From a virus (Duplodnaviria; Caudoviricetes): 48,595 nt of DNA. Location: positions 1 to 48,595 of the IMG/VR virus record IMGVR_UViG_3300044931_000080. The stretch is one strand, 5' to 3'. Position 1 is the stretch's first letter. The number at the start of each line of letters is the position of its first letter. The notes beneath the pieces were generated by a model, which searched no databases, was not told the DNA's origin, and saw nothing but the letters and a program-made list of their open reading frames with translations. Below are positions 1,591 to 34,114 of this stretch, one piece after another. The position numbers were made by a program, and so were the translations under genes.

Positions 1591-1622
1591 ACCCCTGGAC
1601 CGTACGACAGGGGTAGGACACA
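1590..1622 (-). promoter_or_regulatory. PafBC/RecA-NDp-like promoter of immA-like gene with 8-bp inverted repeat
   Basis: Minus strand TGTCCT(1620-1615)-N10-TACGGT(1604-1599)-8 nt-ATG; IR TACCCCTG/CAGGGGTA. Confidence 0.55.
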
Positions 1623-1626
1623 GGCG

Positions 1627-2040
1627 TCAGAGGTTGAAGACAGTAATGCGCTGGCCTGCGTCCCTGCCCACGCCCTTCACTCGGATCAGCCTCGGTGTTT
1701 GACTCTCGGTGATGACGGAGACGATGTGCGGAAGCGCCGCAATCAATGACGCGGACTCTGCCGCGATTCCTGGCAACCCCTTGGCGTTTGTTCGTCGCAG
1801 TGTGATCCATGTGAGACCACTTGTCCTGATTGCTTCTCTCTCGTGCTCCACGACTAGCTGCCGGCGGTCATCGGTGATGATTGCGTGGAATCCCAGGGCG
1901 GCGGCGCGGGGGAGCAGTTCAACGTCTGGCGTTTCGCGGAGCCCCACCTCGTTGACATGTTGGAAGTCGTGCCAGGGAGCCACAGCGCTGATGTTGCCAG
2001 GCAAGTTAACCGTCATGTTCTCGTCGAATAGAAACCTCAC
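1627..2040 (-). CDS. PIN-domain toxin, VapC45/DUF5615-like
   Basis: MRFLFDENM start, D-x-E and IITDD acidic PIN motifs; 4-nt overlap with upstream antitoxin. Confidence 0.85.
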   Translation of the reverse strand: MRFLFDENMTVNLPGNISAVAPWHDFQHVNEVGLRETPDVELLPRAAALGFHAIITDDRRQLVVEHEREAIRTSGLTWITLRRTNAKGLPGIAAESASLIAALPHIVSVITESQTPRLIRVKGVGRDAGQRITVFNL

Positions 2041-2654
2041 GCGGCCTCACCACTTCGGATGGAGATGACCTCCGCCTCGAAGTCGAGGGCTTCTTCTGCT
2101 GCGTGCTCGCTCACGCTCGGGTAATAGTGGCTCACCCACGAGACAGGCACCGACCCGTCGCCCACAAGGTTCGTGATGATGTCGTACGCGATTGCAGTTC
2201 CCCTGATGGTGGGGAATCCTCCCATGACGCCCTCGCGGAGTGAGAGTTCAGCTCGGGGAGCGAGGAGGTCGGGGACTTGCCTGCCCTGCATGTTGCGGAA
2301 GGGTCGGAAGATATCCAGGAGTCCCGAGAGCATCGACTGCCCGCGATTTGTTACGAGATCCGTGGCCTCTCCTGAACCCACGAGGAAGACAGACTTGCCA
2401 TCTGTGGTGAGGGAGTACGCAGAAGGATGATCGGTCAGATCCATGTCGTCAAGCGTCCTGAATGCTGTCCTGATCTTCTGCAGAGAGACCTCAGTCCGAA
2501 GCTTGGCGACAGCGCGGAGCGCCATCACGTCGCGGAACGAGTATCTCGCTGGCCGAGCGTCGTACTCAGGGCGAAGGAGGTTGGTCCGCGACCAGCTTCG
2601 AAGTTGATTGGCAGACGCGCCTGAAAGCGTCGCCGCCAGATCGGTGCTAAACAC
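2037..2654 (-). CDS. MerR-HTH + DUF433 antitoxin, VapB45-like
   Basis: N-terminal MerR-like HTH (LRSW...YSFRD), C-terminal MGGFPTIRGT DUF433 motif; GGAGGTG RBS. Confidence 0.85.
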   Translation of the reverse strand: MFSTDLAATLSGASANQLRSWSRTNLLRPEYDARPARYSFRDVMALRAVAKLRTEVSLQKIRTAFRTLDDMDLTDHPSAYSLTTDGKSVFLVGSGEATDLVTNRGQSMLSGLLDIFRPFRNMQGRQVPDLLAPRAELSLREGVMGGFPTIRGTAIAYDIITNLVGDGSVPVSWVSHYYPSVSEHAAEEALDFEAEVISIRSGEAA

Positions 2655-2671
2655 CCTGTTTCACCTCCCTT

Positions 2672-2698
2672 CAATGGGTGCAATCCTGCTACCCATTG
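2672..2698. promoter_or_regulatory. Inverted repeat upstream of TA operon (putative operator)
   Basis: CAATGGGT-N11-ACCCATTG. Confidence 0.45.
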
Positions 2699-2700
2699 TC

Positions 2701-3354
2701 TCACTCTCGGCCATGATGGTCCTGGTTCTCTTCGCCGCGGTCCCGGCTCTCGCGGTCGCCGGTGATGCCCTCGGACGCCTCATCCGGCGTGTAGGCGACG
2801 GACCTCTTCGCCGGCGGTGGGGGCTGCAGCTTCCCTTGGTCTAGGTCGCCGGGCTTGTGGGTTGTCCCGAAGTTCAGCTGGTCGATCTCTTCGGCGCGCT
2901 GCGCTTCGCGGCGGGCGCGGAGTTCGTCCGACTTCATGGGGGTTCGATCCCGAGTGCCAGACACATCCGGATGATGGTCTTCTTGATCCTCTGCCTGCGA
3001 CGCATGCGCTGCTCCCTTGTTGCTCTCCGCCAGGAGGCGGATGATCTCGTTCACAGCGGTCCGCTGTGGGGGAGTGAGCAAGTCCGCCGACGCGTGCGCC
3101 TCGAAGGGCTCGTGACCCGTGTGGGTCGCCGCGGCCTCGAGGTCTTCCGCCGGCACTCCGAACACTTGGGCGAACGCATCGAGGGTGGCATGCTGCGGCT
3201 TCTCGGGATGCTTCCCGCTGAGATACCGAGACACGTTCCCCTTCGATAGGGGGACACCCAGGTCGTTCGACCGCTTCACGATCTGAGGTTGGTTCATCCG
3301 CTGGGCGCGGCTCAGTTCGTTCAGTAGGTCGGAGAGTCTGCTCACGGCGATCAC
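2701..3354 (-). CDS. Immunity repressor (XRE HTH)
   Basis: HTH-like LSKGNVSRYLSGKHP; divergent from cro-like gene; start may be 3345. Confidence 0.8.
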   Translation of the reverse strand: MIAVSRLSDLLNELSRAQRMNQPQIVKRSNDLGVPLSKGNVSRYLSGKHPEKPQHATLDAFAQVFGVPAEDLEAAATHTGHEPFEAHASADLLTPPQRTAVNEIIRLLAESNKGAAHASQAEDQEDHHPDVSGTRDRTPMKSDELRARREAQRAEEIDQLNFGTTHKPGDLDQGKLQPPPPAKRSVAYTPDEASEGITGDRESRDRGEENQDHHGRE

Positions 3355-3465
3355 TTTCCAGCAGGGGCGCGGTCTTCACAAGCCTAGACGTGTAGCGGTC
3401 ATACACGAACAACATGCCGGTAATTCGCGTCGTGGCGCGGAAGTTCAGAAAGTTTCGGGGGAGAG

Positions 3466-3494
3466 TTGCATTCCGGGTGACACGCCCCTATAGT
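3466..3494 (+). promoter_or_regulatory. Early lytic SigA-type promoter
   Basis: TTGCAT-17 bp-TATAGT, followed by GTTC/GAAC palindromic operator-like tract 3491-3523. Confidence 0.75.
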
Positions 3495-3539
3495 TCAAAG
3501 TGTTCATGGAGAACATGGAACTACAGCGAAGGAGGTGAC

Positions 3540-3797
3540 ATGAGCCCCGCATACAAGGCCACGCGACGCGGCTTCACCGCACGCCCTCACAAGGAGCAGA
3601 TCCGACTGGCACTGACCTTCAAGCAGTGGACGAACGCGGACCTCGCCTTCAAGGCCCGGATCAGCCCCTCGACGGTCGGGAACATCCTCGGCAAGCGCGA
3701 GACCTGCAACCCGGAGACCGCAGCCAAGATCGCGAAGGCCCTCGGCGTGGAGACCGAGCGCCTCTTCACTCTCGAGCAGATCGACTACGCCGCATGA
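3540..3797 (+). CDS. Cro-like HTH protein
   Basis: GGAGGTG RBS; LAFKARISPSTVGNI HTH; first rightward gene. Confidence 0.85.
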   Translation: MSPAYKATRRGFTARPHKEQIRLALTFKQWTNADLAFKARISPSTVGNILGKRETCNPETAAKIAKALGVETERLFTLEQIDYAA

Positions 3798-3854
3798 AGA
3801 AGGCCCCCACCTGGTGCAACAGGTGAGGGCCAGACGATCCCGAAAGGAATCAAC

Positions 3855-4706
3855 ATGTCCAGCAACATCGTACCAATCGGCGGCACCTCGCCGTTCGACA
3901 GCATCCGACAGGTCCGCGACAACGGCACCGAGTTCTGGTCCGCCCGCGACCTGATGGGAATCCTCGGCTACTCCCGATGGGAGACGTTCGAGAACCCGCT
4001 CAGCCGCGCCATGGCGACCGCCCGGAATCAGGGTCACGTGGTCGAGGACCTTTTCCACCGATCGGTGGAAAAGTCCGGAGGCCGCCCTCGCACTGACTTC
4101 GACCTGACTCGGTACGCCGCGTACCTCACCGTGATGAATGGTGACCCGAACATGCCCCGCGTCGCTGAGGGCCAGTCCTACTTCGCGATCCGCACCCGTG
4201 AGGCAGAGGTCGCGAAGCCCGTCCAAGAGCTCACCTTCGCGGAGAAGACCCTCGAGGTAATGGCCGGCCTGCAGGAACTCGTCGCCTCTCAGAAGGCGGA
4301 GAACGACAAGCAGGCCAAGCAGCTCGAGGCACAGCGGCCGGTCGTCGCTCGGATGAAGAACTACCAGGCGAACGAGAAATCGAGCAACAAGCAGCGGTTC
4401 GCCCGCGACATCTGCAAGGCCCTCCGCGAACAGCTCGGCATCGATGCCCTGCAGCCCGACGTCATGGTCTTCCTGTCCCGCCGCCTGAACCTCTTCGTCG
4501 CGGGCAAGCGGTCCGACGCCGGCGAGGCGACCGCGTGGGCGGAGAAGAACTTCTATGCCGAGACCCGCCGCAAGGTCGCGGAGAACGGCCACAACATCAG
4601 CCAGGGCCTGCTGACCGCCCGTGGCTACGACTACGCCTGGACGCGCATCTTCGCCTACGCGGAGGAGCACGGCCACATCAAGCTGAAGGAGAAGACCAGT
4701 GCGTGA
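3855..4706 (+). CDS. Antirepressor, BRO/DinD-like N-terminus
   Basis: FDSIRQ..EFWSARDLM..LGY.RWE.F and LTRYAAYL..MNGDP motifs. Confidence 0.85.
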   Translation: MSSNIVPIGGTSPFDSIRQVRDNGTEFWSARDLMGILGYSRWETFENPLSRAMATARNQGHVVEDLFHRSVEKSGGRPRTDFDLTRYAAYLTVMNGDPNMPRVAEGQSYFAIRTREAEVAKPVQELTFAEKTLEVMAGLQELVASQKAENDKQAKQLEAQRPVVARMKNYQANEKSSNKQRFARDICKALREQLGIDALQPDVMVFLSRRLNLFVAGKRSDAGEATAWAEKNFYAETRRKVAENGHNISQGLLTARGYDYAWTRIFAYAEEHGHIKLKEKTSA

Positions 4707-5037
4707 CTACGTGTGGGCCGTCCGGGTTACGGCAATGCCTGAGGGGTCGCTGCTCGAGGACGGGTCGTTCGCGCCCGGATGGGAGCCGGAGAACTGGGGC
4801 GAGGAGATGGCGTCGCTCAAGCGCGCCGGGATCATGCGGGCCGAAGAGACGGAGTTCTTCTGGCCGGTGGTGGACAAGGTCTACATGTCCAGGAGCTCTG
4901 CGACGAAGCGTGCCCAGCTGCTCGAGCGGTACGGCGCGACGGCGAGTGTCGTGCGGTCGCCGCTGAGGTGGGAGACCACCGCGGGCGAGCCGGTGGACCT
5001 CTACGAGTACCTCGGTGACGAGGGGGTCGCGGCGTGA
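4699..5037 (+). CDS. Hypothetical protein
   Basis: Coupled ORF in early operon, high-GC3 codon usage. Confidence 0.7.
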   Translation: MRDYVWAVRVTAMPEGSLLEDGSFAPGWEPENWGEEMASLKRAGIMRAEETEFFWPVVDKVYMSRSSATKRAQLLERYGATASVVRSPLRWETTAGEPVDLYEYLGDEGVAA

Positions 5038-5606
5038 GCGCGCGGGAGACCCTTGGGGCGCGGGTGAAGCGCCTCCGCATCGAGCGGCGTCTCAGCCCGG
5101 CTGCGCTGGGTGCGCTGGCCGGGGTGGACGCGAAGACGATCCGCACGATCGAGAGCGGGGCGAGGACCCCGCAGGACATCACAGTCGCGAAGGTGGAGGA
5201 GGCCCTCCAGTGGGTCTCACTCGCTGGCCCCAGCCCCGCGGCCGCCGCGAAGCGGGAGGAGGTTGAGGCGAAGCTGGCGGAGCTGTCAGCTGTCCTCCAG
5301 TCCTTCACTCGGAAGATTCGTGGCGATGTACTCAGCGAACGTGTAGTTCCGAGCCTCGAGCTGGACGATCGCTTGGGCGACGCAGCTGGTCAGATCGGTG
5401 ATCATCTGCGTGACCAGCTCGAACTTGTCATCGACCGACTCAAGTCCATCGAAGCGGTGCTTGAGGTTCTCGGTGCGCGCCTTCATGTCGTCGGCGAACT
5501 TCTCGGAGATCTCGAACGGCTCCATGATTCTTCCCCCTCAGTAGGTGGTTGTGGTGACCCTCAGCCTACTGAGGGGGAGGCCCGCAAGGGCGGTGAAGCG
5601 GCATGA
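5034..5606 (+). CDS. XRE HTH protein; 3' half overlaps an antisense gene
   Basis: LGARVKRLRIERRLS..LG..AGVD.KTIRTIESG HTH_3 motif. Confidence 0.75.
   Translation: MSARETLGARVKRLRIERRLSPAALGALAGVDAKTIRTIESGARTPQDITVAKVEEALQWVSLAGPSPAAAAKREEVEAKLAELSAVLQSFTRKIRGDVLSERVVPSLELDDRLGDAAGQIGDHLRDQLELVIDRLKSIEAVLEVLGARLHVVGELLGDLERLHDSSPSVGGCGDPQPTEGEARKGGEAA
5286..5525 (-). CDS. Small antisense moron protein (79 aa, helical)
   Basis: GAGGGGG RBS, own TAGGCT -10 inside a 14-bp IR, protein-like composition. Confidence 0.65.
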   Translation of the reverse strand: MEPFEISEKFADDMKARTENLKHRFDGLESVDDKFELVTQMITDLTSCVAQAIVQLEARNYTFAEYIATNLPSEGLEDS

Positions 5607-5779
5607 ATCGGGGCGACATCATCCTGGCTGCGTTCATCGCGGCGGCGGTCTTGGGTGCGACGGCGCTGTTCCTCGCGACGGTCTCTGCCGCGGCGGAGGC
5701 CACCGTGTTCGACGTGACGGACCCGGACCGCGGCATCTACCGCATGCATGCTCCTCTCCTCGCAGAAGGAGCGCACTGA
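5603..5779 (+). CDS. Small membrane protein (58 aa)
   Basis: Read manually: MNRGDIILAAFIAAAVLGATALFL; ATGA/TGATG coupling. Confidence 0.65.
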   Translation: MNRGDIILAAFIAAAVLGATALFLATVSAAAEATVFDVTDPDRGIYRMHAPLLAEGAH

Positions 5780-5997
5780 TGCGACTCATCAAGAAGACCT
5801 CTCAGCACCGCCGCGACTTCACCGGCATCTTGCAGTGCGAGCACTGCGACCACCGGCAGGAGCTGCGCCAGGGATACGACGACACCTACTACCACCAGAA
5901 CGTCATCCCGAGGATCCCGTGCGGAGCCTGCGGTAAGGACTCGCCCACCGATGCCCCGAAGACGGCACCGGACGTCCCGGCAGGAGTCGTGCTGTGA
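5779..5997 (+). CDS. Small Zn-ribbon protein
   Basis: CEHC...CGAC; AGGAG RBS. Confidence 0.7.
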   Translation: MRLIKKTSQHRRDFTGILQCEHCDHRQELRQGYDDTYYHQNVIPRIPCGACGKDSPTDAPKTAPDVPAGVVL

Positions 5998-6146
5998 CGG
6001 GCATCGACATCGTGACCCGCGACCTCGCGGAGACACCGAACGGCACCGCGTTCGCCATTCACGCGTATGTCATGTGGGGCGACGACTACCCGATCTCCGG
6101 TGACGAGCTGGCCCTGATCCGGGCGGGGGTCGAACGCGATGACTGA
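5994..6146 (+). CDS. Hypothetical protein (50 aa)
   Basis: Read manually; GTGA overlap and GGAG RBS. Confidence 0.5.
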   Translation: MTGIDIVTRDLAETPNGTAFAIHAYVMWGDDYPISGDELALIRAGVERDD

Positions 6147-6258
6147 CTGGCTCTCTCAGATGTTCGAGGACCTGCAGGACCAGGCTCTCACCGACCAGGA
6201 AGCCGCGGCGGACACGGACCCGGACCGCGCCTACCACAACCGACTGTTCGAGGAGTGA
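6139..6258 (+). CDS. Hypothetical protein (39 aa)
   Basis: Read manually: MTDWLSQMFEDLQDQ; fills operon gap. Confidence 0.5.
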   Translation: MTDWLSQMFEDLQDQALTDQEAAADTDPDRAYHNRLFEE

Positions 6259-6262
6259 CCCG

Positions 6263-6436
6263 ATGCGACGACTACTCACCGCCTACGACGTGGCGAAGAC
6301 GCTGCGGTGCAGCTACCGGTACGTCCACATCCTCCGCAAGAAGGGACTCCTCCGGGCGGTCGCTCTGGGTGGGGTGTGGCGGTTCGATCCGGCGGATGTG
6401 GAGGCGTACGTCGAGCAGCAGAAGGCGACGGCATGA
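6263..6436 (+). CDS. Excisionase-like HTH_17 protein (57 aa)
   Basis: Read manually: MRRLLTAYDVAKTLRCSYRYVHILRKKGLLRAVALGGVWRFDPADVEAY; GAGGAG RBS. Confidence 0.8.
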   Translation: MRRLLTAYDVAKTLRCSYRYVHILRKKGLLRAVALGGVWRFDPADVEAYVEQQKATA

Positions 6437-6615
6437 CCCGCCATCAGTGGCGCCGTTTCTGGTGCCTGTGGACGCCCACTTACCTGGTGGGGGTCGGCAT
6501 GGTTGCCGGCTCAGCAACTCTCACCGACACGACGAACGGCCTGACGGTCCTCGGCGCACTGACTGCGCTGGCGGGGTTGCTGGCCGCAACGCATGACTCA
6601 AGGAGCACACGATGA
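6433..6615 (+). CDS. Small membrane protein
   Basis: Two hydrophobic segments; ATGA overlaps at both ends. Confidence 0.65.
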   Translation: MTRHQWRRFWCLWTPTYLVGVGMVAGSATLTDTTNGLTVLGALTALAGLLAATHDSRSTR

Positions 6616-7532
6616 CGTACACATTCGGACCCCCCAGCACGGACGAAGCCGCGTGGCATGCGGCCCGCGCCCACACCGACGACGGACAGATCCGCGTCAC
6701 CGCCTCCGAGGTCGCCGCACTGGCGTCCGGCGGGAAGAGCGTGTGGGCGAACCTCCGCGCCGAGAAGGCCGGCACCAAAACCAGGTGGTCGGGCAACGAG
6801 CACACGGCGTGGGGTCACCAGCGTGAGCCGGAGATCGCCGCCGCGATGACGGACACGTACCCGTGGCTGGTCGCGAACGATCACCTGTGCATCCAGGACG
6901 CGGACCCCCGGTGGGCTGCGACCCCGGACATGCTCGGCGATTCAGCGGGCATGGTCTGCCAGATCAAGACCGCTGTCTGGGCTGGCGAGAAGTGGGATCT
7001 GTCCAAGGTGCCGCGTCGCTACTACGACCAGATCCAGTGGGAGATCTTCACGACCGGATCGGGTGAGGCGCTGCTGGCAGTCGAGTACTACGACGAGCTC
7101 GACGGTGGCCTCGTGCCGCACTTCCTGCTCGAACCGCCGCACGTCATCGAGATCCCCCGCGATGACGAGCGGATCGCGGAGCTGGTCGCGATCGCTGAGC
7201 AGTTCATCGCGATGGGACAGCCCGACACCCTCGACATCTACCTGGCGGACTACGCCCGCGCTGACGCCCGCGAGAAGGCGGCGAAGGCGAAGAAGGAAGA
7301 GGTGCGGAAGCTCATCGCCAAGGAGATCGCGGAGCGACCCAGCGGCAAGTACGTGTCCGATCTCGGGTCGATCACCCTCGGCAAGGACACCACGCGGACG
7401 GTGACGGTGCTCAACGAGGAGCGGCTGCGGGAGAAGGCGCCGAAGACGTGGGAGCGGTACGTCGAGGAGCAGGAGAAGACGACGAAGGGGCGACTCACGA
7501 TCACCCCCGCGAAGGAAGAGGAAGCGGCATGA
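6612..7532 (+). CDS. YqaJ-type viral exonuclease (RecE-like)
   Basis: TASEVA, WGHQREP, ATPD, QIKT, YYDQIQW motifs. Confidence 0.9.
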   Translation: MTYTFGPPSTDEAAWHAARAHTDDGQIRVTASEVAALASGGKSVWANLRAEKAGTKTRWSGNEHTAWGHQREPEIAAAMTDTYPWLVANDHLCIQDADPRWAATPDMLGDSAGMVCQIKTAVWAGEKWDLSKVPRRYYDQIQWEIFTTGSGEALLAVEYYDELDGGLVPHFLLEPPHVIEIPRDDERIAELVAIAEQFIAMGQPDTLDIYLADYARADAREKAAKAKKEEVRKLIAKEIAERPSGKYVSDLGSITLGKDTTRTVTVLNEERLREKAPKTWERYVEEQEKTTKGRLTITPAKEEEAA

Positions 7533-8326
7533 GCGCCGAGATCACGGTCCACAGCAGTGCGGCTCAGATGAGCGTGTCCGAACGTCAGCACTACGCGTCG
7601 GTCCTGGCGGACGCGAGGATGATCCCGAAGGCGTTCCAGAAGTCGCCGGCGGACATCTTCGTCGCGATCGAGTACGGCAACGCCCTGGGTATCGCCCCGA
7701 TCGTCGCGTTGAACGAGATCAACGTCATCAACGGCACCCCGTCTCTGTCTGCGTCGATGATGGCGTCGCTGGCCCGGAATGCGGGTCACCGGGTGCGGAC
7801 GCAGAACCTGGAGGACGGGTCTGCGGTGTGCGAGATCATCCGGTCGGATGATCCCGAGTTCACGCACCGGTCTGTGTGGAACCAGGCGAAGGCTCAGGCG
7901 GCTGGCCTGTGGGGCAAGGGGCACTGGGCGAAAGACCCCGCGACCATGCTGCGCTGGCGCGCCATCTCCGAGTGCGTGCGCATGGCGTGCCCCGAAGTCC
8001 TTGGCGGACTCAAGTACACGTCCGAGGAAGTCATCGAGTTCACGGGGTCGCCGGAACCTCAGCGCCAGCAGGCACGCCAGGCAGCGCCCACTCCGCCGGC
8101 GGATGTGGACTTCTACGCGATGCTCGACCAGTGCGAGACGCAGGACGATCTCAAGCGGGCGTGGGTGGAGATCGACCGAGCCCATGGAGGGTTCCGCAAT
8201 GTGCCGCCCGACCTTACCGCGACCGTGAAGGCGCTCAAGGAAACCCTTCCGGAGCAGGCAGGCGAGCACGTCCAGGCGGAGGTTGTTGATCCGGAGACGG
8301 GTGAGATCCAGGACGACGCGGCATGA
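7529..8326 (+). CDS. RecT/Beta-like single-strand annealing protein
   Basis: Follows exonuclease; AIEYG..LG...INVING.P.L and W.K.P..ML..RA motifs. Confidence 0.8.
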   Translation: MSAEITVHSSAAQMSVSERQHYASVLADARMIPKAFQKSPADIFVAIEYGNALGIAPIVALNEINVINGTPSLSASMMASLARNAGHRVRTQNLEDGSAVCEIIRSDDPEFTHRSVWNQAKAQAAGLWGKGHWAKDPATMLRWRAISECVRMACPEVLGGLKYTSEEVIEFTGSPEPQRQQARQAAPTPPADVDFYAMLDQCETQDDLKRAWVEIDRAHGGFRNVPPDLTATVKALKETLPEQAGEHVQAEVVDPETGEIQDDAA

Positions 8327-8679
8327 GCGACATCAAGACGCCGGACGCGATCATTCGTGACCTCGAGGCGGTCCGGAACCACGCCGCGCAGGGTCCGGCA
8401 GAGCTGCGGAAGGCGGAGGGCGAGTACCTCGAGGCGAAGCGCCAGCATGATCGCGAGTACGCGCTGGCCTACAAGCGGGCCGCCGGGCCGGTGGAGGACC
8501 GGAAGCAGCAGGCGACTATCGACGCTGACTCGTTCGCGCAGGCGATGGATGACGCGCAGATCGTCCTGAACTACGTGAAGGCGCAGTCGCGGTCGCTGGA
8601 CTCTCAGCAGTCGAATCTGCAGACGCAGGCCCGGCTGGTGGAGATCACGTACCGGCTGGCGGGGGTGGGGCAGCCATGA
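8323..8679 (+). CDS. Hypothetical coiled-coil protein
   Basis: Coupled ORF, heptad character. Confidence 0.7.
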   Translation: MSDIKTPDAIIRDLEAVRNHAAQGPAELRKAEGEYLEAKRQHDREYALAYKRAAGPVEDRKQQATIDADSFAQAMDDAQIVLNYVKAQSRSLDSQQSNLQTQARLVEITYRLAGVGQP

Positions 8680-9014
8680 GCGTCCCACGACGGACCCGCC
8701 GGCTCGTGTTCGACCGCGACGGTGAGCGGTGCGTGCACTGCGGCACCACGGAGGGCCTGACGATCCAGCATCGGGCGAACCGAGGCATGGGCGGCTCCAA
8801 GGGCCTGGACGGCCCGGAGAACCTCATCGCCATGTGCGCGATGGCGAACTACCGCCTGGAGCAGGATTCCGCGTTCGCGGACCTGGGCCGCATCTACGGG
8901 TGGAAGATCCGCCGCACTGATGATCCCGAATCCATCCCCGTCCTGTACCCGGACGGCAATCACTACTCCCTCACGTCGAGGGGCACACGAATCAAGGAGC
9001 AGAACCATGGCTGA
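8676..9014 (+). CDS. Small HNH-family nuclease
   Basis: RD..RCVHCG..LTIQHR.NRGMGG...NL..MC. Confidence 0.8.
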   Translation: MSVPRRTRRLVFDRDGERCVHCGTTEGLTIQHRANRGMGGSKGLDGPENLIAMCAMANYRLEQDSAFADLGRIYGWKIRRTDDPESIPVLYPDGNHYSLTSRGTRIKEQNHG

Positions 9015-9516
9015 TGCACGAATCATCATCGAGGGTCGTATCGCGACGGACCCCCGCTTCAACACGTCCGGCAACGGCGACCCGGTGGCGAACCTGCGGG
9101 TGCTCGCGGGCCGATCGCGGAAGAACGAACAGGGCGGCTGGGACACCCTCAGCGAGACGGCGTTCAACGTCGCGTTCTGGCGGGAGCACGCCCAGCTGGT
9201 CGATTCCCTCCGCCCGGAGAAGGGCTCCGCAGTGGTCATCACCGGGACCGTCTCCGGCGTCGAGTCGTACCAGGGAGAGCGTGGCGAGTCCCTGTCGGTG
9301 AAGGTGACCGGCGACGGGCTGCGCGTGTTCCCGAAGCGCGACCAGGGGCAGCAGTCCCAGCGGCCGGCGGATCGGTATGCGGGTGATCCGGGGTACGCCC
9401 AGCAGGGCCACCCGCAGGGCCAGCCTTCGTACTCGCCGGGTCAGCAGGCGCAGGGGTACGGGCAGCAGGACCCATGGGCTGGCTCCCAGCCGCAGGACGA
9501 CCGTCCGCCTTTCTGA
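9007..9516 (+). CDS. ssb: Single-stranded DNA-binding protein
   Basis: OB-fold motifs (G.IATDP.F...G..VAN.RV), Q/G-rich tail ending DDRPPF. Confidence 0.9.
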   Translation: MADARIIIEGRIATDPRFNTSGNGDPVANLRVLAGRSRKNEQGGWDTLSETAFNVAFWREHAQLVDSLRPEKGSAVVITGTVSGVESYQGERGESLSVKVTGDGLRVFPKRDQGQQSQRPADRYAGDPGYAQQGHPQGQPSYSPGQQAQGYGQQDPWAGSQPQDDRPPF

Positions 9517-9543
9517 CGGACCCCGACTCGTGAAGGACACACC

Positions 9544-27372: not shown

Positions 27373-27374
27373 CC

Positions 27375-27722
27375 ATGGCGAAGAACCAGCTCTACCCCGA
27401 GGCGAAGCACATCGCCCTCACCGCCGACCAGGACTACACCAGCGGCAGCCCTGTCGCGATCGGCGCAGTCCGAGGTGTCGCCCTCATCGACGCCCACGAG
27501 GGCGACCGCGTGACCGTGTGGACGGACGGATCCTGGGAGATCCCCGTCGCCGGCGCACTCACGGAGGGGCAGGTCGTCTACCTCAACGCCTCCGGCGCGC
27601 TGACCGCGACCGCGGGTGACACCGCGTGGGGCGTCTCCCTCGCCGTCAAGGGCACCGGCACCGCCCCTGCAGAGGTCGCACCGTTCGGCTTCGTCACCCC
27701 GACCCCGGCGTCTGCCGGCTGA
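27375..27722 (+). CDS. Capsid cement/decoration protein (DUF2190-like)
   Basis: MAKN...SG.PV..G...GVAL.D motif. Confidence 0.85.
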   Translation: MAKNQLYPEAKHIALTADQDYTSGSPVAIGAVRGVALIDAHEGDRVTVWTDGSWEIPVAGALTEGQVVYLNASGALTATAGDTAWGVSLAVKGTGTAPAEVAPFGFVTPTPASAG

Positions 27723-27739
27723 CCGAAAGGCACAAGAAC

Positions 27740-28807
27740 ATGGACACCATTGATCTGATGCAGGAGGGATTCCGGCGCGCTACGACGCGTGCGGAGAAGG
27801 TCCACGAGGCCGCCTCCCTGTTCGCCCGCGGCCGCAACGGCAGCAAGCCCCTCGCCCAGGCCGTCCTCCTCGAGGCGTTCTCCACGAGCGACTTCCCGGT
27901 CCTCCTGGGTGACGCGTTCGAGAAGCAGGCCCTCAAGGCCTACCAGGACACGCCGCTCGAGTTCGAGAGCATCCTCACCGACACGACGGTGGATGACTTC
28001 GAGCGCCGCAAGCTCGTCGACCTGTGGGGAGCCACCGAGTTCGCGCCTGTCGGTGAGGGCGAGGAGTACAAGTCCGGTCGCATGCAGGAGACCGAGATCG
28101 AGCACGGCACCGGCAAGTACGGTCGCACGTACGGTCTCACCTGGGAGCTGCGTCTGCGTCGCCGCTTCGCTGAGCTGGCGAACTTCCCCCGCGCTCTCGG
28201 CAACGGTGCCCGCAAGACCCAGAACACGGTCGTCGCGGACCTCCTCACCGACGGCAACAGCTGGAACGCGAACTTCTTCGGCACCCCCGGCACCGAGAAG
28301 TTCACCCCCGAGGCGCTGGACGCGGCGATCAAGACGCTCGCCCAGCGCACCAACCACCGGGACGAGCTCGTCGACACGTCGAACCTCGTCCTCGTGCACG
28401 GCCCCGCACTGCGTGGCGAGGTGGGGCGTGTCCTCACTGCAGCCCGCATCGTCACGAAGGTGACCACGGGTTCGAAGGTGACGGAGACGGAGGTCGACAA
28501 CCCGTACCGCGGCATCGTCACCCCGCTGGAGTCCCGCACGATCGGTGCGCGTGTCAACGCGGACGGGTGGGCGCTCGTGCAGGGCAAGACGTCGGATCTG
28601 CCGTCGATCATCCGCACGAAGCTCAACGGTCACCCCGACGTCGACATCCGGGTCAAGCGCGACCAGGGTTCCGCTGTCGGTGGTGGGGACATTCCGGTGG
28701 AGGAGGGGTCGTTCAACGACGACACCATCCACTACCGGGGTCGTTCTGTGGTCGGTATCGATGCGGGGTTCAAGACGGGCGTGTACGCCTCCAACGGCAC
28801 CGCCTGA
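27740..28807 (+). CDS. Major capsid protein (Mu gpT-like)
   Basis: STSDFP.LL, V.DF, V.E.EEY, KYGR...TWE motifs; strong codon bias. Confidence 0.9.
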   Translation: MDTIDLMQEGFRRATTRAEKVHEAASLFARGRNGSKPLAQAVLLEAFSTSDFPVLLGDAFEKQALKAYQDTPLEFESILTDTTVDDFERRKLVDLWGATEFAPVGEGEEYKSGRMQETEIEHGTGKYGRTYGLTWELRLRRRFAELANFPRALGNGARKTQNTVVADLLTDGNSWNANFFGTPGTEKFTPEALDAAIKTLAQRTNHRDELVDTSNLVLVHGPALRGEVGRVLTAARIVTKVTTGSKVTETEVDNPYRGIVTPLESRTIGARVNADGWALVQGKTSDLPSIIRTKLNGHPDVDIRVKRDQGSAVGGGDIPVEEGSFNDDTIHYRGRSVVGIDAGFKTGVYASNGTA

Positions 28808-28829
28808 GACCTGAGGGGAGGGGGCGCAG

Positions 28830-28898
28830 ATGATCGACTACAGCACTGAGGTTGGCCAGATGCGCCTCCTCCTGTGTCCGTGCTCGACGGTAGAATAG
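28830..28898 (+). pseudogene. Orphaned original 5' end of head-tail adaptor gene
   Basis: GGAGGGGG RBS + MIDYSTEVGQMRLL aligns ungapped to INYTDDSGRVRLL of the gene at 29589. Confidence 0.75.
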
Positions 28899-28981
28899 GA
28901 CACGCAACCGAATAGAACGGCCCGCCAGGAGACGGCAATCTCCGGACGGGCCTCACCAAGCCCAACTGTTCAGGAGTTGAG
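28873..28981 (+). promoter_or_regulatory. PafBC-like promoter and structured leader of HNH-1
   Basis: TGTCCG-N10-TAGAAT; hairpin with CGGCAA loop; CAACT/AGTTG hairpin over RBS. Confidence 0.65.
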
Positions 28982-29596
28982 ATGGCTACCAAGAATCGTA
29001 CCTGCACAATCGACGGCTGCGACAAAGAAGCGGAGCGCCGAGAGTGGTGCAACACCCACTGCTTGCGGTGGAGGCGCAACGGAGATCCGGTTGCAGGACG
29101 GCGACCCCAGGCAAGCGCGTCACTGGACCCGATCGACCGACTCCGCCACCACGGATGGGATGTCACCGAAACAGGGTGCTGGGAGTGGCGAGGATCAACC
29201 AGCTCCAGCGGGTACGGGCAAGTTCGGATCGGTTACAAGCTCTACGCTGCGCACCGCGTCATGTATGAACACGCAGTCGGGCCTATTGAAGACGGTATGC
29301 ACATCCTCCACTCGTGTGACAACCCGCCATGTCTCAACCCGGCGCACCTGCGTAGTGGAACGCACACAGACAACATGCGTGACATGTCCTCCAAAGGGCG
29401 CCGCCGACCGGACAGCGTTCTTCCTCGCGGGTCTCAGCACGCGAACGCGATCCTCACCGAAGAACTCGTGATTGATCTGCGCACTGAACGTCGGGGAGGG
29501 ATGACGTACAAGCAGCTTGCTGCGAAGTACGGGGTTGCATTCTCTACGGTCGCGGACATCGTCAAACGGAAGAAGTGGAGGCACGTCGGTGGCTAA
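28982..29596 (+). CDS. HNH homing endonuclease 1 (C-terminal HTH)
   Basis: CWEW, AHRV.Y, HSCDNPPCLNPAHL..GT..DN. Confidence 0.93.
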   Translation: MATKNRTCTIDGCDKEAERREWCNTHCLRWRRNGDPVAGRRPQASASLDPIDRLRHHGWDVTETGCWEWRGSTSSSGYGQVRIGYKLYAAHRVMYEHAVGPIEDGMHILHSCDNPPCLNPAHLRSGTHTDNMRDMSSKGRRRPDSVLPRGSQHANAILTEELVIDLRTERRGGMTYKQLAAKYGVAFSTVADIVKRKKWRHVGG

Positions 29597-29960
29597 AGCG
29601 ATCAACTACACCGATGACTCTGGCCGGGTCAGACTTCTCATTGCCGACACGGATGTCGACAACCTAGTCCTGGACGATGAGCAGATCCTCGGGTTCCTCG
29701 AGATCCATGGGGGCAACGTCAAGCGTGCTGCTGCGGCGGCACTCGACACGATCGCCTCGTCTGAGGCGCTGCTGTCGAAGAAGATCCGCACGCAGGACCG
29801 TCAGACCGATGGGCCTGCGGTGGCGGATGCTCTGCGTGCTCATGCTCGTGCTTTGCGGGATGAGGCGGACGGTGAGGATCAGGTGGAGGAGGAGTCGTTC
29901 TTCCTCCTGACCGAGCCGCTCCTGCCGACGCGAGTCGAGGGGGAGGAATGGCGCCGCTGA
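29589..29960 (+). CDS. Head-tail adaptor/connector
   Basis: VRLLIADTD...DEQI..FL...AAA.ALD.IA; first structural gene after capsid. Confidence 0.8.
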   Translation: MAKAINYTDDSGRVRLLIADTDVDNLVLDDEQILGFLEIHGGNVKRAAAAALDTIASSEALLSKKIRTQDRQTDGPAVADALRAHARALRDEADGEDQVEEESFFLLTEPLLPTRVEGEEWRR

Positions 29961-30370
29961 GCACCACCCGCATCATGCCGGACAACTGGTCGGAGCATCA
30001 CAGGCCAGCGGCGGAGGGGTTCCTCACAGGCACTTGCGATGCGCGGCGGGCGGATCGGGCTGGTGGCCCTGAGGGGATCATCTACGGCACCCCAGTGTGG
30101 GACGAGAAGCCGTGCAGTGCGCAGTTCCTGTCCCAGTCCGCGAGGCCTGTCGTGGTCGTGGACAGCACTGAGGTGCAGGTGACCCACCGCGTCTCGGTAC
30201 CGATCCATCTCACGGATCTGGGGTACCGCGACGTCATCACCATCACCGCGAACCCGGACGACCCCCGCCTGAACGGAGCTGTCCTGACAGTGGTGACGGT
30301 GGAGTCGGGGACGACGAACTGGACCAGAGACCTCGCCTGCGTCGAACAGAACCGGAGGCGACATGAGTGA
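29948..30370 (+). CDS. Head closure/stopper (DUF6093-like)
   Basis: Synteny and beta-rich 140 aa. Confidence 0.7.
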   Translation: MAPLSTTRIMPDNWSEHHRPAAEGFLTGTCDARRADRAGGPEGIIYGTPVWDEKPCSAQFLSQSARPVVVVDSTEVQVTHRVSVPIHLTDLGYRDVITITANPDDPRLNGAVLTVVTVESGTTNWTRDLACVEQNRRRHE

Positions 30371-30710
30371 TGACCTGAGGGCGTTCGCAACAGACCTCCG
30401 CAAGACCAGCGCGAAGGCCCAGAACATGGCCCGCCAGGCCGTGGCGAAGACCGCTGCCGACATCACCAGCGATGCGAAGGTGTACGCACCCGTCCGCACC
30501 GGCAACCTACGGGCGAGCATCGGCCACGACCTCACCGAGACGAATGGCGTGGTGGAGGCTGAGATCGGACCCACGGTGAGTTACGCGCACTTCCTCGAGC
30601 ACGGGACGAGTCGGATGGCGCCCCGCCCGTTCCTCGGGCCCGCGTTCGACCGGCGCGCACCCAACCTCGAGAAAGCCATGAGCATGCTCCTTGACGGGAC
30701 CGTCGGATGA
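30363..30710 (+). CDS. HK97 gp10-like neck protein
   Basis: APVRTGNLRASI, YA.FLE.GTSRM..RPFL.PA. Confidence 0.92.
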   Translation: MSDDLRAFATDLRKTSAKAQNMARQAVAKTAADITSDAKVYAPVRTGNLRASIGHDLTETNGVVEAEIGPTVSYAHFLEHGTSRMAPRPFLGPAFDRRAPNLEKAMSMLLDGTVG

Positions 30711-31111
30711 CGACCGAAGAACTGGTCGCCCACCTCATCAACCGGCTCGGTCTCACGGGGGCGCTCGTCTACGACGGGCACGTCCCCGACCAGATACCCA
30801 CGTTCCCCGGCACCGCGATCATCCGCCCGTACATGGTCATCTGGGCGATGCCCACCAGGGAAGGCGAGGAGCAGGACCTGGCGTACTCGCACCAGAACTC
30901 CCGCTCCGACCTCACCATCACCGTCGCCGCCGGCTCCGTCGAGACCGTCCGTCATCACTCTCAGCAGGCGATTGGGCTCCTGCACCGGCAGACCCTCCCC
31001 GGTGGTGGGGAGCTGCGGCACACAGACCCCCACGTGGCTGTTCAGTGGGACGAGACCGTCACCCCAGGACGCTTCTACCAGCCACTCGCCTTCATGCTCC
31101 TGCAGCCGTAA
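30707..31111 (+). CDS. Tail terminator protein
   Basis: VYDG.VP...PY.V motif and synteny. Confidence 0.75.
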   Translation: MTTEELVAHLINRLGLTGALVYDGHVPDQIPTFPGTAIIRPYMVIWAMPTREGEEQDLAYSHQNSRSDLTITVAAGSVETVRHHSQQAIGLLHRQTLPGGGELRHTDPHVAVQWDETVTPGRFYQPLAFMLLQP

Positions 31112-31129
31112 ACCCTCCTGCCCCGCTCT

Positions 31130-31163
31130 GGCCCTCACGAACGTCGTGGGGGCCTTCGTCATT
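31130..31163 (+). terminator. Hairpin/attenuator-like element
   Basis: GGCCCTCACGA-ACG-TCGTGGGGGCC then TTCGTCATT. Confidence 0.5.
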
Positions 31164-31178
31164 CACGAAGGGAAACCC

Positions 31179-31370
31179 ATGCCCGACAAGTTCATCGAGG
31201 CCATCGACACACGGACGGGACAGAAGATGCGCGTCCCCTCCCAGTGGCCCAGCCTCTTCCCCCACATCAAGGCACGCAAGCACCACCGACCGGACCAGCC
31301 CAAGACCGTCCAGGTCACCGAGCCGCGTCCCCAGATCCCCACCCTCAAGAACGAACCGAAGGAGTCCTGA
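31179..31370 (+). CDS. Small hypothetical protein
   Basis: GAAGGG RBS; precedes major tail gene. Confidence 0.6.
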   Translation: MPDKFIEAIDTRTGQKMRVPSQWPSLFPHIKARKHHRPDQPKTVQVTEPRPQIPTLKNEPKES

Positions 31371-31371
31371 A

Positions 31372-31914
31372 ATGCCTCTCTCACTCGCTGATGGAAAGGT
31401 CAAGGTCGCAGTCCTGTCGACTCGACCCGCCAACCCCTCCGCTCCCACCGTCGCGGAGCTGGACGCTGGAATCCAGGCCTCGTGCCGAATCGCCAGCCAG
31501 GACTGGAACGTGGGCCCTGCGGCCTCCGAGACAGTCGATGAGAAGCCGCTGTGCCGCGAAGGAAACGTGCAGGCGCTCGGCCCAAGCAACTTCACGGCGG
31601 AGTTCACCGTGTTCCGGTACTTCACCGAGGAGGGGCAGCCCGAAACCGGTGAGGACGACACCGAGGAAGGCATTGGAGATGCCCTCTACCAGGCGGTGAA
31701 GACCAAGGGTGCGCGTCTGTACATCTACGAGCGCGAGACCTCCCGGAAGTCCCTGGCGGATTGGGCTGCTGATGACGAGGTGAGCGGGTACGAGATCCTG
31801 CTCGACAACCCTCAGAAGCCGGGAGACCAGGGCGGCTACATCAAGCGTCGCGTGGTCGGGCTCGTGCAGGATGCGTGGCTCGACGCCAAGGTCGCAGCCG
31901 GCACCGGCGGCTGA
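31372..31914 (+). CDS. Major tail (tube) protein
   Basis: APTVAEL.AG motif, LC, synteny. Confidence 0.88.
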   Translation: MPLSLADGKVKVAVLSTRPANPSAPTVAELDAGIQASCRIASQDWNVGPAASETVDEKPLCREGNVQALGPSNFTAEFTVFRYFTEEGQPETGEDDTEEGIGDALYQAVKTKGARLYIYERETSRKSLADWAADDEVSGYEILLDNPQKPGDQGGYIKRRVVGLVQDAWLDAKVAAGTGG

Positions 31915-31925
31915 CCCTGACAACT

Positions 31926-31971
31926 CCTGTGCGGCATGCTCTTCCATGCCACGGGCGGCATGCCGCACAGG
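31926..31971 (+). terminator. 14-bp stem hairpin after major tail gene
   Basis: CCTGTGCGGCATGC-N18-GCATGCCGCACAGG. Confidence 0.55.
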
Positions 31972-31980
31972 TCCACATCT

Positions 31981-32075
31981 TGTGTCCGTGGCGTTCGATA
32001 TGATGGTCGGACAATCGAAGAGCCCCCGCGCTGCGCTAACAGCCGGGGGTGTGGCCGAGTATGGAGGTACTCGAC
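31981..32075 (+). promoter_or_regulatory. PafBC-like promoter and structured leader of HNH-2
   Basis: TGTCCG-N10-TATGAT; hairpin with CGCTAA loop; CGAGTA-TGGAGG-TACTCG RBS hairpin. Confidence 0.65.
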
Positions 32076-32633
32076 ATGTCCAAGCGTACCTGTTCAATCG
32101 ACGAGTGCGAGTCGGCTGTGCGCTCCCGCGGCGCATGCGTCCGGCATTACGCGCTGATGCTCTCCCCGGATGAGGCGGCAGAACTGCAAGCAAGCGTTCG
32201 CGACCGGTTCTGGGCGAAGGTCGATCAGTCCGGCGAATGCTGGACCTGGACCGCTGCGCGCTATCGGAACGGGTACGGCGCATTCCGGGGATTCGACGGT
32301 CGCGTCACAACCGCTCACCGGTTTTCCTATAGCACCGAAGTGGAGGACATCCCGGATGAGCAGCACATCGACCACCTCTGCGGCTCGCGCGATTGCGTTC
32401 GGCCCGCCCACCTGAGAGCAGTAACGCCGAAGCAGAACATCGAGCACCGCGTAACCCTAAACGCGAACAACCGGAGCGGATACCGGGGCGTGTACTTCTC
32501 CAACGGGCGGTGGTGGGTGAAGGTGCGTGACCACTACCAGGCCCACTACCGGGGCGGCTTCATGACCTTGGAAGAGGCCAACGAAGCGGCCATTTCGCTC
32601 CGCCAGGAACTGTTCACACACTCGCGAGACTGA
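32076..32633 (+). CDS. HNH homing endonuclease 2 (C-terminal AP2 domain)
   Basis: RFWAKV, CW.W, AHRFSY, DHLC...CVRP.HL; NRSGYRGV...W...F.T.EEA AP2. Confidence 0.93.
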   Translation: MSKRTCSIDECESAVRSRGACVRHYALMLSPDEAAELQASVRDRFWAKVDQSGECWTWTAARYRNGYGAFRGFDGRVTTAHRFSYSTEVEDIPDEQHIDHLCGSRDCVRPAHLRAVTPKQNIEHRVTLNANNRSGYRGVYFSNGRWWVKVRDHYQAHYRGGFMTLEEANEAAISLRQELFTHSRD

Positions 32634-32700
32634 TCAATCAATAGCAATGGGAAGCCCTCACAGCCGTGGGGGCTTCCGCCATTCAAGAAGGAGAAAGCCC

Positions 32701-33351
32701 GTGGCCGAAGACGATATGTTCAGCAGCTCTCCTGTCGACCCAGCCGATGGGGACTGGTTTTCGCAGTGGCTCGAGACCGGCACCGTCGCCCAGCGCAGCG
32801 TCCCCATCTACGGGCGCCCGGATCTGTTCGCGAAGTACGAAGACCTCGAGCGCCGACGGCAGATCGCCGCGGAAGTCGACCAGGAAGAGCGCAGCCTGGG
32901 GGACTCGTCCCTGGCGGACATCGACGAGGAGATCAACGCCCTCTACAAGCAATGGCAGGCGTCCAAGACCGTCTGGTACATCCGCGCCCTGCAGCCCGAC
33001 GAGATCGATCAGGCCCGGGATGAGGTGAACTTCCCGGACGAGCCGAAGCCGGCGGAGGGGGAGAAGGAACTCTCTGCTGAGGTGCGTCGAGAGTACGAGC
33101 GGGAGGCTGAGGCCGCGAACACGCGTGCGAACCAGATCTTCGTCGCCCGCTCCCTCGTGAAGATCGAGAACAGCCTGGGTGAGGTCGTCCGTGAGTCGAT
33201 CACCCCGGAGCAGGTGAAGGTGATGCGGGAGAAGCTGGGTGATCAGCAGATCCTCCGTCTGGTCGCGGCGGCGATGGTCGCGGCGACCCAGGAGGTTTCG
33301 ATCCCGGTCCCTTTCTCTCAGAGCAGCTCGAAGAGCGACCGCGCCTCGTAA
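32701..33351 (+). CDS. Tail assembly chaperone (gpG)
   Basis: Between tail tube and TMP; AAGGAG RBS; slippery site at 3' end. Confidence 0.85.
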   Translation: MAEDDMFSSSPVDPADGDWFSQWLETGTVAQRSVPIYGRPDLFAKYEDLERRRQIAAEVDQEERSLGDSSLADIDEEINALYKQWQASKTVWYIRALQPDEIDQARDEVNFPDEPKPAEGEKELSAEVRREYEREAEAANTRANQIFVARSLVKIENSLGEVVRESITPEQVKVMREKLGDQQILRLVAAAMVAATQEVSIPVPFSQSSSKSDRAS

Positions 33352-33668
33352 GGACGCTCAGGGCCGCACGCTCGTGGGGTGTGCGGCCCGGAGTGTTCGT
33401 GGAGGAGTGGCCTGAGAAGGACCGCCTGTTGGCTGAGGCGCTGACGCATTTCGAGGACACCGCGCACTGCAGTGGGTGTGGGCAGTTGAAGTCGAAGGCG
33501 TGGGATCCGGACAGCGCGTGGGAAGTCGGCACGGTGGAGTGCTACGCGTGCAAGTCACACCAGGACGACAAGACCGAGTCGAAGCCGGGTGAGTTGCGGT
33601 TCCTGTCGCTGGATGAGAAGTCGATGCGGATCGCGAAGGCCCGGAAGAAGGCCCGCGAAGGTCAGTAG
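33309..33668 (+). CDS. Tail assembly chaperone gpGT extension via -1 frameshift
   Basis: C CCT TTC heptamer at 33309-33315; -1 frame open into W..KDR.LA.A...CSGCG...CYAC. Confidence 0.85.
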   Translation, partial: PFLSEQLEERPRLVRTLRAARSWGVRPGVFVEEWPEKDRLLAEALTHFEDTAHCSGCGQLKSKAWDPDSAWEVGTVECYACKSHQDDKTESKPGELRFLSLDEKSMRIAKARKKAREGQ

Positions 33669-34084
33669 GTCCAGGCAGTGACGTTGACGTCCCCGTTCTC
33701 GTCCATGGTCACCCCGCAGTTGAAGCTGTCGCTCGTCGTCGATCGTCCCGATGCGTTCGGGTAGCGCGCCTCGCCAGACACCGCCCACATGGTCCCGGTG
33801 TCTCCGAGGTCTCTGAACTCGACATCGAACAGCTCGACCGGCTCATCGAGCCCCAGCTCGGCAGCGAGTTCGGCAGCGCACTCAAGCTCCACCGCCTCTT
33901 GAACCGTCATCGGAGTCTCTGTCGGCTCCGGTTCCGGTGCGGCAACGGGCTGGTTGGTGGCATTGGCCAGCCAGATCAGACCCCCTGCCAGCGCCAGCAC
34001 GGCGACGAACACGGCCACGACAGGCCACCACGACGTCTTCTTTTCAGGCGCGAGAGCGCTCTTGAACACCACGGGCTTTCCCAT
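33662..34084 (-). CDS. Reverse-oriented membrane-anchored moron protein
   Basis: Single N-terminal TM, PE linker, acidic ectodomain with two Cys; leaderless promoter. Confidence 0.8.
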   Translation of the reverse strand: MGKPVVFKSALAPEKKTSWWPVVAVFVAVLALAGGLIWLANATNQPVAAPEPEPTETPMTVQEAVELECAAELAAELGLDEPVELFDVEFRDLGDTGTMWAVSGEARYPNASGRSTTSDSFNCGVTMDENGDVNVTAWTY

Positions 34085-34090
34085 AGGCGA

Positions 34091-34114
34091 AGTATCCCAC
34101 GGGGTCCGGACACA
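34091..34114 (-). promoter_or_regulatory. PafBC-like leaderless promoter
   Basis: Minus strand TGTCCG(34112-34107)-N10-GATACT(34096-34091)-6 nt-ATG. Confidence 0.5.

Follow-up and report, generated by a model that had tools for sequence, protein, structure and literature searches.

Candidate PafBC-type damage promoters at immA and two HNH nuclease genes of a temperate phage with a likely Brevibacterium host

The viral record IMGVR_UViG_3300044931_000080 was analysed whole, and its 48,595 bases are referred to below as the window. Its gene layout is that of a temperate siphovirus: it encodes an integrase, an ImmA-like protease and a repressor, and has early genes as well as genes for head, tail and lysis. 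The host genus is likely Brevibacterium, since the capsid protein is 68% identical to that of phage LuckyBarnes and 76% identical to that of a prophage of Brevibacterium sp. RIT 803, most of the ImmA homologs bearing organism names come from Brevibacterium, and the late region was matched, in many cases weakly, by 26 of 72 genomes of the family. Four copies of the string TGTGTCC, each followed by 11 nucleotides (nt) and a -10-like hexamer, lie upstream of the protease gene (immA), of two HNH endonuclease genes (HNH-1 and HNH-2) and of an antisense membrane gene (the moron). A first-pass annotation had proposed these sites to be promoters answering to the host damage regulator PafBC, and all four strings were confirmed, with their positions and strands. 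The features concerned are the following (aa, amino acids; HTH, helix-turn-helix).

1..1176, minus strand: tyrosine integrase gene (int), starting 3 nt past the immA stop codon; likely co-transcribed from the immA promoter
1180..1590, minus strand: ImmA/IrrE-type zinc protease gene (immA), 136 aa, with HEQIH at residues 53-57 plus E72; likely an anti-repressor
1599..1622, minus strand: candidate PafBC-type promoter of immA; TGTC at 1620-1617, 12 nt, TACGGT at 1604-1599, 8 nt, ATG
1627-2040, minus strand: PIN_10 gene, between repressor and immA, with a DUF433 partner
2037-2654, minus strand: MerR-HTH/DUF433 gene, paired with the PIN_10 gene, VapBC45-like
2701..3354, minus strand: XRE-type repressor gene, 217 aa, HTH only; putative ImmA substrate
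28830..28898, plus strand: 5′ remnant of a head-to-tail connector gene, broken in codon 15, where the box begins
28873..28896, plus strand: candidate PafBC-type promoter of HNH-1, TGTCCGTG-N8-TAGAAT; left insertion edge, with the ATG 85 nt downstream
28903..28981, plus strand: HNH-1 leader; a hexaloop hairpin, then a hairpin predicted to lie over the ribosome-binding site
28982..29596, plus strand: HNH-1 endonuclease gene, 204 aa, HNH_3 match
29589..29960, plus strand: head-to-tail connector gene, complete, its 5′ end replaced; overlaps the stop codon of HNH-1
31981..32004, plus strand: candidate PafBC-type promoter of HNH-2, TGTCCGTG-N8-TATGAT; ATG 71 nt downstream
32011..32075, plus strand: HNH-2 leader, with the two-hairpin layout of HNH-1
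32076..32633, plus strand: HNH-2 endonuclease gene (HNH_3), 185 aa, in the interval between the major tail and tail chaperone genes
33662..34084, minus strand: antisense moron coding for a 140 aa membrane protein with a single hydrophobic stretch, in the slot between tail chaperone and tape-measure genes
34091..34114, minus strand: possible but weak moron promoter; TGTCCG and an extended-TG hexamer, GATACT, the ATG following after 6 nt

The four sites and the box of the host genus

PafBC binds single-stranded DNA (ssDNA) and steers SigA polymerase to promoters with a -26 and a -10 element. Its consensus, tGTCgg(N10)tA(N3)T, comes from chromatin immunoprecipitation (ChIP) and cryo-electron microscopy (cryo-EM); PafB reads the GTC, which is conserved in actinobacterial recA promoters (PMC8635444; papers given here by such numbers are drawn on in excerpt). 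The letters that follow TGTC are variable in Mycobacterium tuberculosis sites (PMC8151990). All four window sites have the GTC triplet in the -26 element and 12 nt between TGTC and the -10 hexamer, and at none of them was a TTG-type -35 hexamer found at 16-18 nt. The -10 elements of immA, HNH-1 and HNH-2 conform to the SigA pattern TAnnnT, while that of the moron is GATACT.

Taken alone, TGTGTCC is not enriched in the window (seven copies against 10.1 expected), and the copies at 670 (plus strand), 9541 (minus) and 26989 (minus) have no -10 element. The full arrangement TGTGTCC-N11-[TG]AnnnT occurs four times against 0.15 expected and was reached in none of 300 shuffles, the pattern being post hoc and derived from these very sites. 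With the spacing of the literature, TGTC-N12-TAnnnT occurs three times against 0.99 expected, a count reached in 22 of the 300 shuffles; the stricter TGTCnGTG-N8-TAnnnT occurs twice against 0.01 expected and in no shuffle. Sites were also ranked among 97,144 positions with matrices trained on DNA outside the window. The matrix from host recA promoters placed HNH-1 first, HNH-2 second and immA ninth; the matrix from immA promoters placed HNH-2 first, immA second and HNH-1 third. Across 20 whole viral records, TGTC-N12-TAnnnT gave 33 matches and the reversed controls 31, showing no enrichment of the bare pattern in phages. The signal is carried by the position of the box and not by the bare pattern.

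The same box is found in Brevibacterium chromosomes. A search of 61 genomes returned 30 recA loci (22 distinct promoters), and all 30 read TGTC[A/C]G-N10-TAnnnT, with A in 18 and C in 12; each of the 12 C forms is preceded by G. Across 69 genomes, TGTCMGTG-N8-TAnnnT gave 1055 matches, compared with 55 for reversed-pattern controls. The C form made up at least 75% of the matches in 14 of these genomes and at most 35% in 50. All four window sites use it. The HNH boxes had been described as one mismatch away from the RecA-NDp consensus; given the 12 recA loci and 14 genomes above, their C is instead a native Brevibacterium variant. The split between A and C follows Brevibacterium species (genomes G001-G069) and could reflect a change in PafB; it might also aid the assignment of phages to hosts.

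A PafC HTH was matched in 69 of the 69 genomes (best E value 7e-22 or better), the same profile matching five of 14 control genomes, and genome G001 has a pafA..pafB-pafC locus. Downstream genes were fetched for 30 of the 46 loose matches in G001; box sites there precede recA, tag, sbcD, mfd, an AlkZ-like gene and a DUF222 gene, and also purK and transporter genes. The immA, HNH-1 and HNH-2 sites have the box of the recA and repair genes of the host genus, a match at genus level to a genus that is itself deduced.

Inverted repeats of 6-9 bp flank the -10 element at immA and at three HNH genes (the third, HNH-3, is described below). As a candidate working element they were rejected, being site by site not above background.

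The immA promoter and its neighbourhood

An alignment search gathered 184 immA loci (a single-protein locus search of genomes returned none). Removal of seven partial matches left 177, of which 143 had distinct upstream sequence. They come from Brevibacterium, Arthrobacter, Sinomonas, Mycobacterium, Gordonia, Williamsia and Cellulomonas, at 31-57% identity, and include close kin, so they do not amount to 143 independent events. TGTC-N12-[TG]AnnnT was found near the immA start in 88 of the 143 loci, compared with 1 of 141, 3 of 143 and 0 of 142 control windows. The spacer is 12 nt long in 85 loci, and any other length from 9 to 15 nt occurs at most once. The start codon lies 6, 7 or 8 nt past the hexamer in 85 of 87 loci; the distance is 8 nt in the window, where immA is predicted to have a leaderless start. 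Among five cultured phages checked, Sbash, phiGD23-1, Eviarto and Adora have the immA box and REQ2 lacks it.

For 56 loci without the strict box, a near match was present in 23 (controls, 7 of 143 and 1 of 142), and a site resembling the LexA box with at most two mismatches in eight (controls, 1 of 143 and 2 of 142), the LexA consensus being taken from PMC3381160. At the level of sequence, the immA box is the conserved core among the four sites. The first-pass annotation had placed its emphasis on the nucleases and the moron; the evidence shifts the weight to the immA-int unit. DNA folding of the immA promoters was also considered as a working element and discarded, since it was no stronger than in controls.

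The ImmA product matches the PHROG 87 metallo-protease family (E 2.6e-9), and residues H53, E54, H57 and E72 are invariant across 44 aligned sequences, 27 of which match PF06114 (Peptidase_M78) at E 0.01. Its predicted model (predicted local distance difference test score, 93) resembles CapP (Z 10.3, root-mean-square deviation (rmsd) 4.0, 126 aligned residues) and PprI (Z 8.2, rmsd 3.8, 120 aligned); a complex of PprI with ssDNA, as named by its structure title, is among the fold matches. The window ImmA aligns only to the first 204 of the 278 CapP residues. Searching solved structures by sequence turned up nothing convincing. ImmA is likely an anti-repressor protease. In the repressor encoded at 2701-3354 only HTH_31 was matched, and a search for Peptidase_S24 in it gave no match. 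Among 92 open reading frames (ORFs) upstream of immA, hand-picked from 129, Peptidase_S24 was found in none and an XRE-type HTH in 14.

The DUF433 and PIN_10 genes at 1627-2654 have a domain layout like that of VapBC45. In relatives, the slot between repressor and immA is occupied by DUF3800, DUF3037, SocA-like, PIN or VapBC genes, and it is likely a hotspot for defence cargo.

Boxes at related genes were seen elsewhere. In two prophages (L418:1501-1540, plus strand; L419:1501, minus strand), genes of the IrrE family have a PafBC box together with a LexA-box-like palindrome that overlaps the start codon, suggesting that dual control by PafBC and LexA is possible there. Prophage G086 (L420:1501, 1824, minus strand) has two divergent small genes, both leaderless and each preceded by a PafBC-type box of its own; neither has a Pfam match. 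In genome G079, a DUF3263 gene with its own PafBC-type box follows immA. The window has such a gene too, far from immA:

48326-48595, minus strand: DUF3263 gene at the right end of the record, with a truncated upstream region

A search for host DNA past this right end, upstream of the DUF3263 gene, found no match. The late region was present in 24 metatranscriptome runs from ant metagenomes, always as contigs, and four of these runs had at least half of its words. Over positions 1-6000, four runs gave flat cover, which is blind to start, strand and level and may include DNA.

HNH cassettes and the antisense membrane gene

HNH-1 interrupts the head-to-tail connector gene at codon 15, duplicating its 5′ end and supplying a new one; HNH-2 sits past the hairpin that follows the major tail gene. 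At both inserts, similarity to relatives free of HNH genes ends where TGTGTCC begins, which is the left insertion edge, and both are missing from seven of seven non-identical relatives. They appear to be free-standing homing endonuclease cassettes, being HNH_3 genes that are optional and replace the sequence they interrupt; homing itself is predicted. The four genes had been taken as unrelated, a description that does not suit the HNH pair, since the two nucleases are about 32% identical and have the same kind of folded leader. Two further HNH genes lie in the window:

46285..47039 (gene 46374-47039), plus strand: HNH-3 cassette; -10 element TACAAT at 46285-46290, leader almost identical to that of HNH-1, no TGTC at -26
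8676-9014, plus strand: fourth HNH gene, shorter than the others, within the early operon and overlapping the stop codon of the gene before it; no box and no leader

HNH-3, the third free-standing HNH gene, serves as an internal negative case. All three leaders have two hairpins, the second predicted to cover the ribosome-binding site. The layout (28903-28981, 32011-32075 and 46300-46373; L307-L397) consists of a hexaloop hairpin, the ribosome-site hairpin and about 50 nt to the start codon. An exact 16-mer of the leader was found in 91 viral loci (83 distinct), mostly with the same layout and in front of HNH and other genes. Two-sided changes occur at eight of nine predicted pairs, and no Rfam family corresponds to the hairpins: an Rfam scan of the window returned no family for promoters or leaders, the sole weak match being R1162 antisense (46308-46381, E 0.31, below gathering). 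Around the HNH-3 -10 element (46270-46325, plus strand), 12 of 13 positions of the flanking inverted repeat match; only in read-through transcripts would its left arm be able to pair with the first stem of the leader.

A family search with the moron product gave no match, and the homologs found were two near-identical proteins, too few for a comparison of promoters. Its site is spaced for a leaderless start (6 nt to the ATG); its -10 element begins with G, as in two of 84 immA promoters, and has an extended TG. In the same slot between tail chaperone and tape-measure genes, 12 of 15 other prophages have an antisense membrane ORF (L007, L013, L016, L018, L521, L523, L526, L529, L531, L535, L536 and L540). 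With the window included, a small antisense membrane gene thus occupies this gap in 13 of 16 prophages, the cargo behind the promoter being unrelated.

A proposed damage-responsive immA-int unit, its alternatives and its relatives

We consider it likely that the immA, HNH-1 and HNH-2 sites are damage promoters switched by PafBC, and that the immA copy boosts protease and integrase toward induction. This reading builds on direct observations of the sequence match, its spacing and conservation, the presence of pafBC in the genus, the protease fold and the lack of an S24 domain. Its parts differ in strength. Action of PafBC is very probable at the immA promoter, where conservation speaks for it, and probable at each HNH promoter, where the box is exactly that of the host genus; at the moron, whose site is weak, PafBC dependence is doubtful and would be somewhat less likely than its opposite. 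The original proposal of PafBC-type promoters is thus supported for three sites. Since an autocleavage domain is missing from the repressor and the fold of ImmA is like those of CapP and PprI, PafBC likely raises immA-int transcription at damage. There are good grounds, in fold and context, to expect that ImmA cuts the 2701-3354 repressor; whether the transcriptional boost of immA would be required for induction is an even call.

In the proposed sequence of events, DNA damage yields ssDNA, which activates PafBC and thereby redirects SigA polymerase to -26/-10 promoters, as described in the papers cited. Activated PafBC would then drive transcription of the leaderless immA and the adjoining int. 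With more ImmA present, perhaps activated in addition by ssDNA, the repressor, which lacks a self-cleavage domain, would be cut and induction would start. Damage would in parallel set off the HNH promoters, giving the nucleases a transcript ahead of late read-through or separate from it, with the folded leaders holding translation low.

A number of results, given here and in the next two paragraphs, weigh against this reading. No strict box was found in 55 of the 143 immA loci, and in 25 of the 143 both a near match and a LexA-like site are missing as well. The window site itself lacks a G after TGTCC and scores 14.3, compared with a median of 20.5 for the conserved sites, and the window ImmA gave no match to PF06114. 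In a Sbash lysogen, transcription of genes 40-43, the IrrE-like gene 42 among them, takes place in the absence of damage (PMC6426596), and the immA box is therefore not an on/off switch. This leads to the main rival, in which the box is a real PafBC promoter that acts as a booster only: ImmA would come from read-through of the repressor operon and be switched on post-translationally by ssDNA or RecA, in the manner of CapP, PprI and Bacillus ImmA, the box perhaps mainly supplying integrase for excision. Besides Sbash, the best fold matches of ImmA (CapP and ssDNA-bound PprI), the response of pneumococcal ImmAR prophages with or without RecA (PMC12637031) and the closeness of int to immA are consistent with it. 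Against it stand the short window ImmA, which covers only part of CapP, and the single box spacing over many genera with LexA-like replacements in some loci, from which it follows that damage-linked transcription of immA is probably under selection. We regard the booster-only account as possible, with roughly one chance in three.

For the nucleases and the moron, conservation is poor. The box was found in only one of 28 HNH genes bearing the HNH-2 leader, that one being the window's own; in 4 of 92 related HNH genes, compared with 1 of 77 controls; before none of eight HNH genes of cultured phages and none of six in sister prophages; and HNH-3, with a plain TACAAT promoter and the leader it shares with HNH-1, has none. 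The moron site ranks 34th with the host recA matrix and 64th with the immA matrix. Among the 12 slot morons, four have an exact box, four have TGAC or TGGC in a homologous promoter, one has GTC only and three have nothing; in the first eight of these the promoter shares sequence with the tape-measure ribosome site, and this may constrain its letters. The suggestion that immA, nucleases and moron form a conserved phage damage regulon thus found no support, the slot-moron count being confounded in this way. That the nucleases tap the host signal independently fared better, in that the box is not inherited with the cassette family, while the same result removes conservation as support for its function.

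These findings would also suit an account in which only immA is wired to damage and the other sites are ordinary SigA promoters or insertion-junction sequence with TGTC at -26 by chance. For the moron this is slightly the better explanation: its GATACT with extended TG could work without an activator, and the T of GTC is lost in four of the eight overlapping slot-moron boxes, set against a spacing that is correct for a leaderless start. For the HNH pair it is unlikely, since two exact copies of TGTCnGTG-N8-TAnnnT are far above expectation, the two sites take the first two ranks under the host recA matrix, and neither has a -35 element. In addition, a sister cassette with the HNH-1 leader, at another site in G071, bears the A form of the box (TGTCAG-N10-TAGACT). 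The HNH boxes are probably functional promoters, judged by their sequence, and probably local captures that belong neither to a conserved regulon nor to the family as a trait.

Two host-side results also count against PafBC control. In G001 the loose pattern TGTCnG-N10-TAnnnT shows no enrichment (46 against 43), and the letter of prophage boxes agrees with host usage in 9 of 12 cases. A different host regulator, such as ClgR or another WYL protein, might read the box: an older paper assigns RecA-NDp to the clp gene regulator (PMC3381160), Brevibacterium genomes have 2-10 WYL matches each, and PafBC data for this genus were not found. This is improbable, given that ChIP and cryo-EM tie the consensus to PafBC (PMC8635444) and that pafC is present in 69 of 69 genomes. 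It is hardly credible that a phage protein recognises the motif as a late promoter or operator through the repeats around the -10 element, as might be imagined from the two copies in the late region and the repeats at immA and three HNH genes, since no copy precedes the terminase or any structural operon in the window, one copy drives the lysogeny-side immA, repeats of at least 6 bp occur at 13% of random window positions and in 11 of 87 immA promoters, and the box is abundant in host chromosomes.

Beyond the window, damage control of immA and int by PafBC may be put forward tentatively as a main trigger of prophage induction across Actinobacteria, acting through leaderless immA-int without RecA or LexA, with a LexA site swapped in for a minority and the host variant of the box captured repeatedly by other cargo, such as homing nucleases and antisense membrane morons, which would then be expressed together with immA. 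Many actinobacterial temperate phages have a repressor without a self-cleavage domain, and a PafBC-driven protease would offer them a route to induction by damage. The link between PafBC and immA lends itself to a direct and cheap test in the cultured phages Sbash, Eviarto and Adora. The nuclease copies suggest that selfish genes can enter a host stress regulon by way of a 22-base element, an event that looks local here. A literature search, which left subscription papers and supplementary regulon tables outside its scope, found no paper linking PafBC or RecA-NDp to a phage gene. The A/C split in Brevibacterium, the count of LexA-box alternatives and the negative conservation test for HNH genes and morons are new here.

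The candidate promoters of immA, HNH-1 and HNH-2 share with PafBC (RecA-NDp) promoters of mycobacteria and other Actinobacteria the TGTC at -28 to -25, with its GTC, the 12 nt to a SigA -10 element and the lack of a -35 element (PMC8635444, PMC8151990, PMC8682763, PMC8223512). They differ in that the fifth base is C (A in most Brevibacterium) and not G, and in lying on a prophage. Among known systems, the lysogeny module comes close to the ImmR/ImmA switch of Bacillus ICEBs1 and phi105. With the Bacillus switch and pneumococcal ImmAR (PMC12637031) it shares an HTH-only repressor, a HExxH protease and an integrase on one strand. In those systems the known control is over protease activity, whereas the window immA, with a predicted leaderless start, lies behind a damage-type promoter of its own and is parted from the repressor by the DUF433/PIN pair. 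The protease fold is that of CapP/CapH and Deinococcus PprI(IrrE)/DdrO, the window ImmA being shorter. CapP is activated by ssDNA.

Anti-repressors under LexA control include Tum of coliphage 186 and an example in N15. Such phage anti-repressors (PMC3381160) likewise place a host damage regulator over anti-repressor transcription. In the window, by contrast, the regulator would be an activator and not a repressor, and the product is a protease and not a binding protein, while some immA loci bear LexA-like sites. For selfish elements under RecA-NDp there is a precedent in the 13E12/DUF222 repeats of M. tuberculosis, controlled by RecA-NDp or LexA (PMC3381160), and a DUF222 gene of G001 is boxed too. 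Those are chromosomal repeats, whereas the window has free-standing phage HNH_3 cassettes. Homing endonuclease genes of T-even phages have their own promoter and a hairpin at the ribosome site, the T4 promoters being middle or late. The window cassettes resemble them in having a promoter and a hairpin covering the ribosome site, and in giving the gene they interrupt a new 5′ end; they differ in that the promoters would be of the host damage type, and not phage middle or late ones, and in that both hairpin arms lie after the predicted start.

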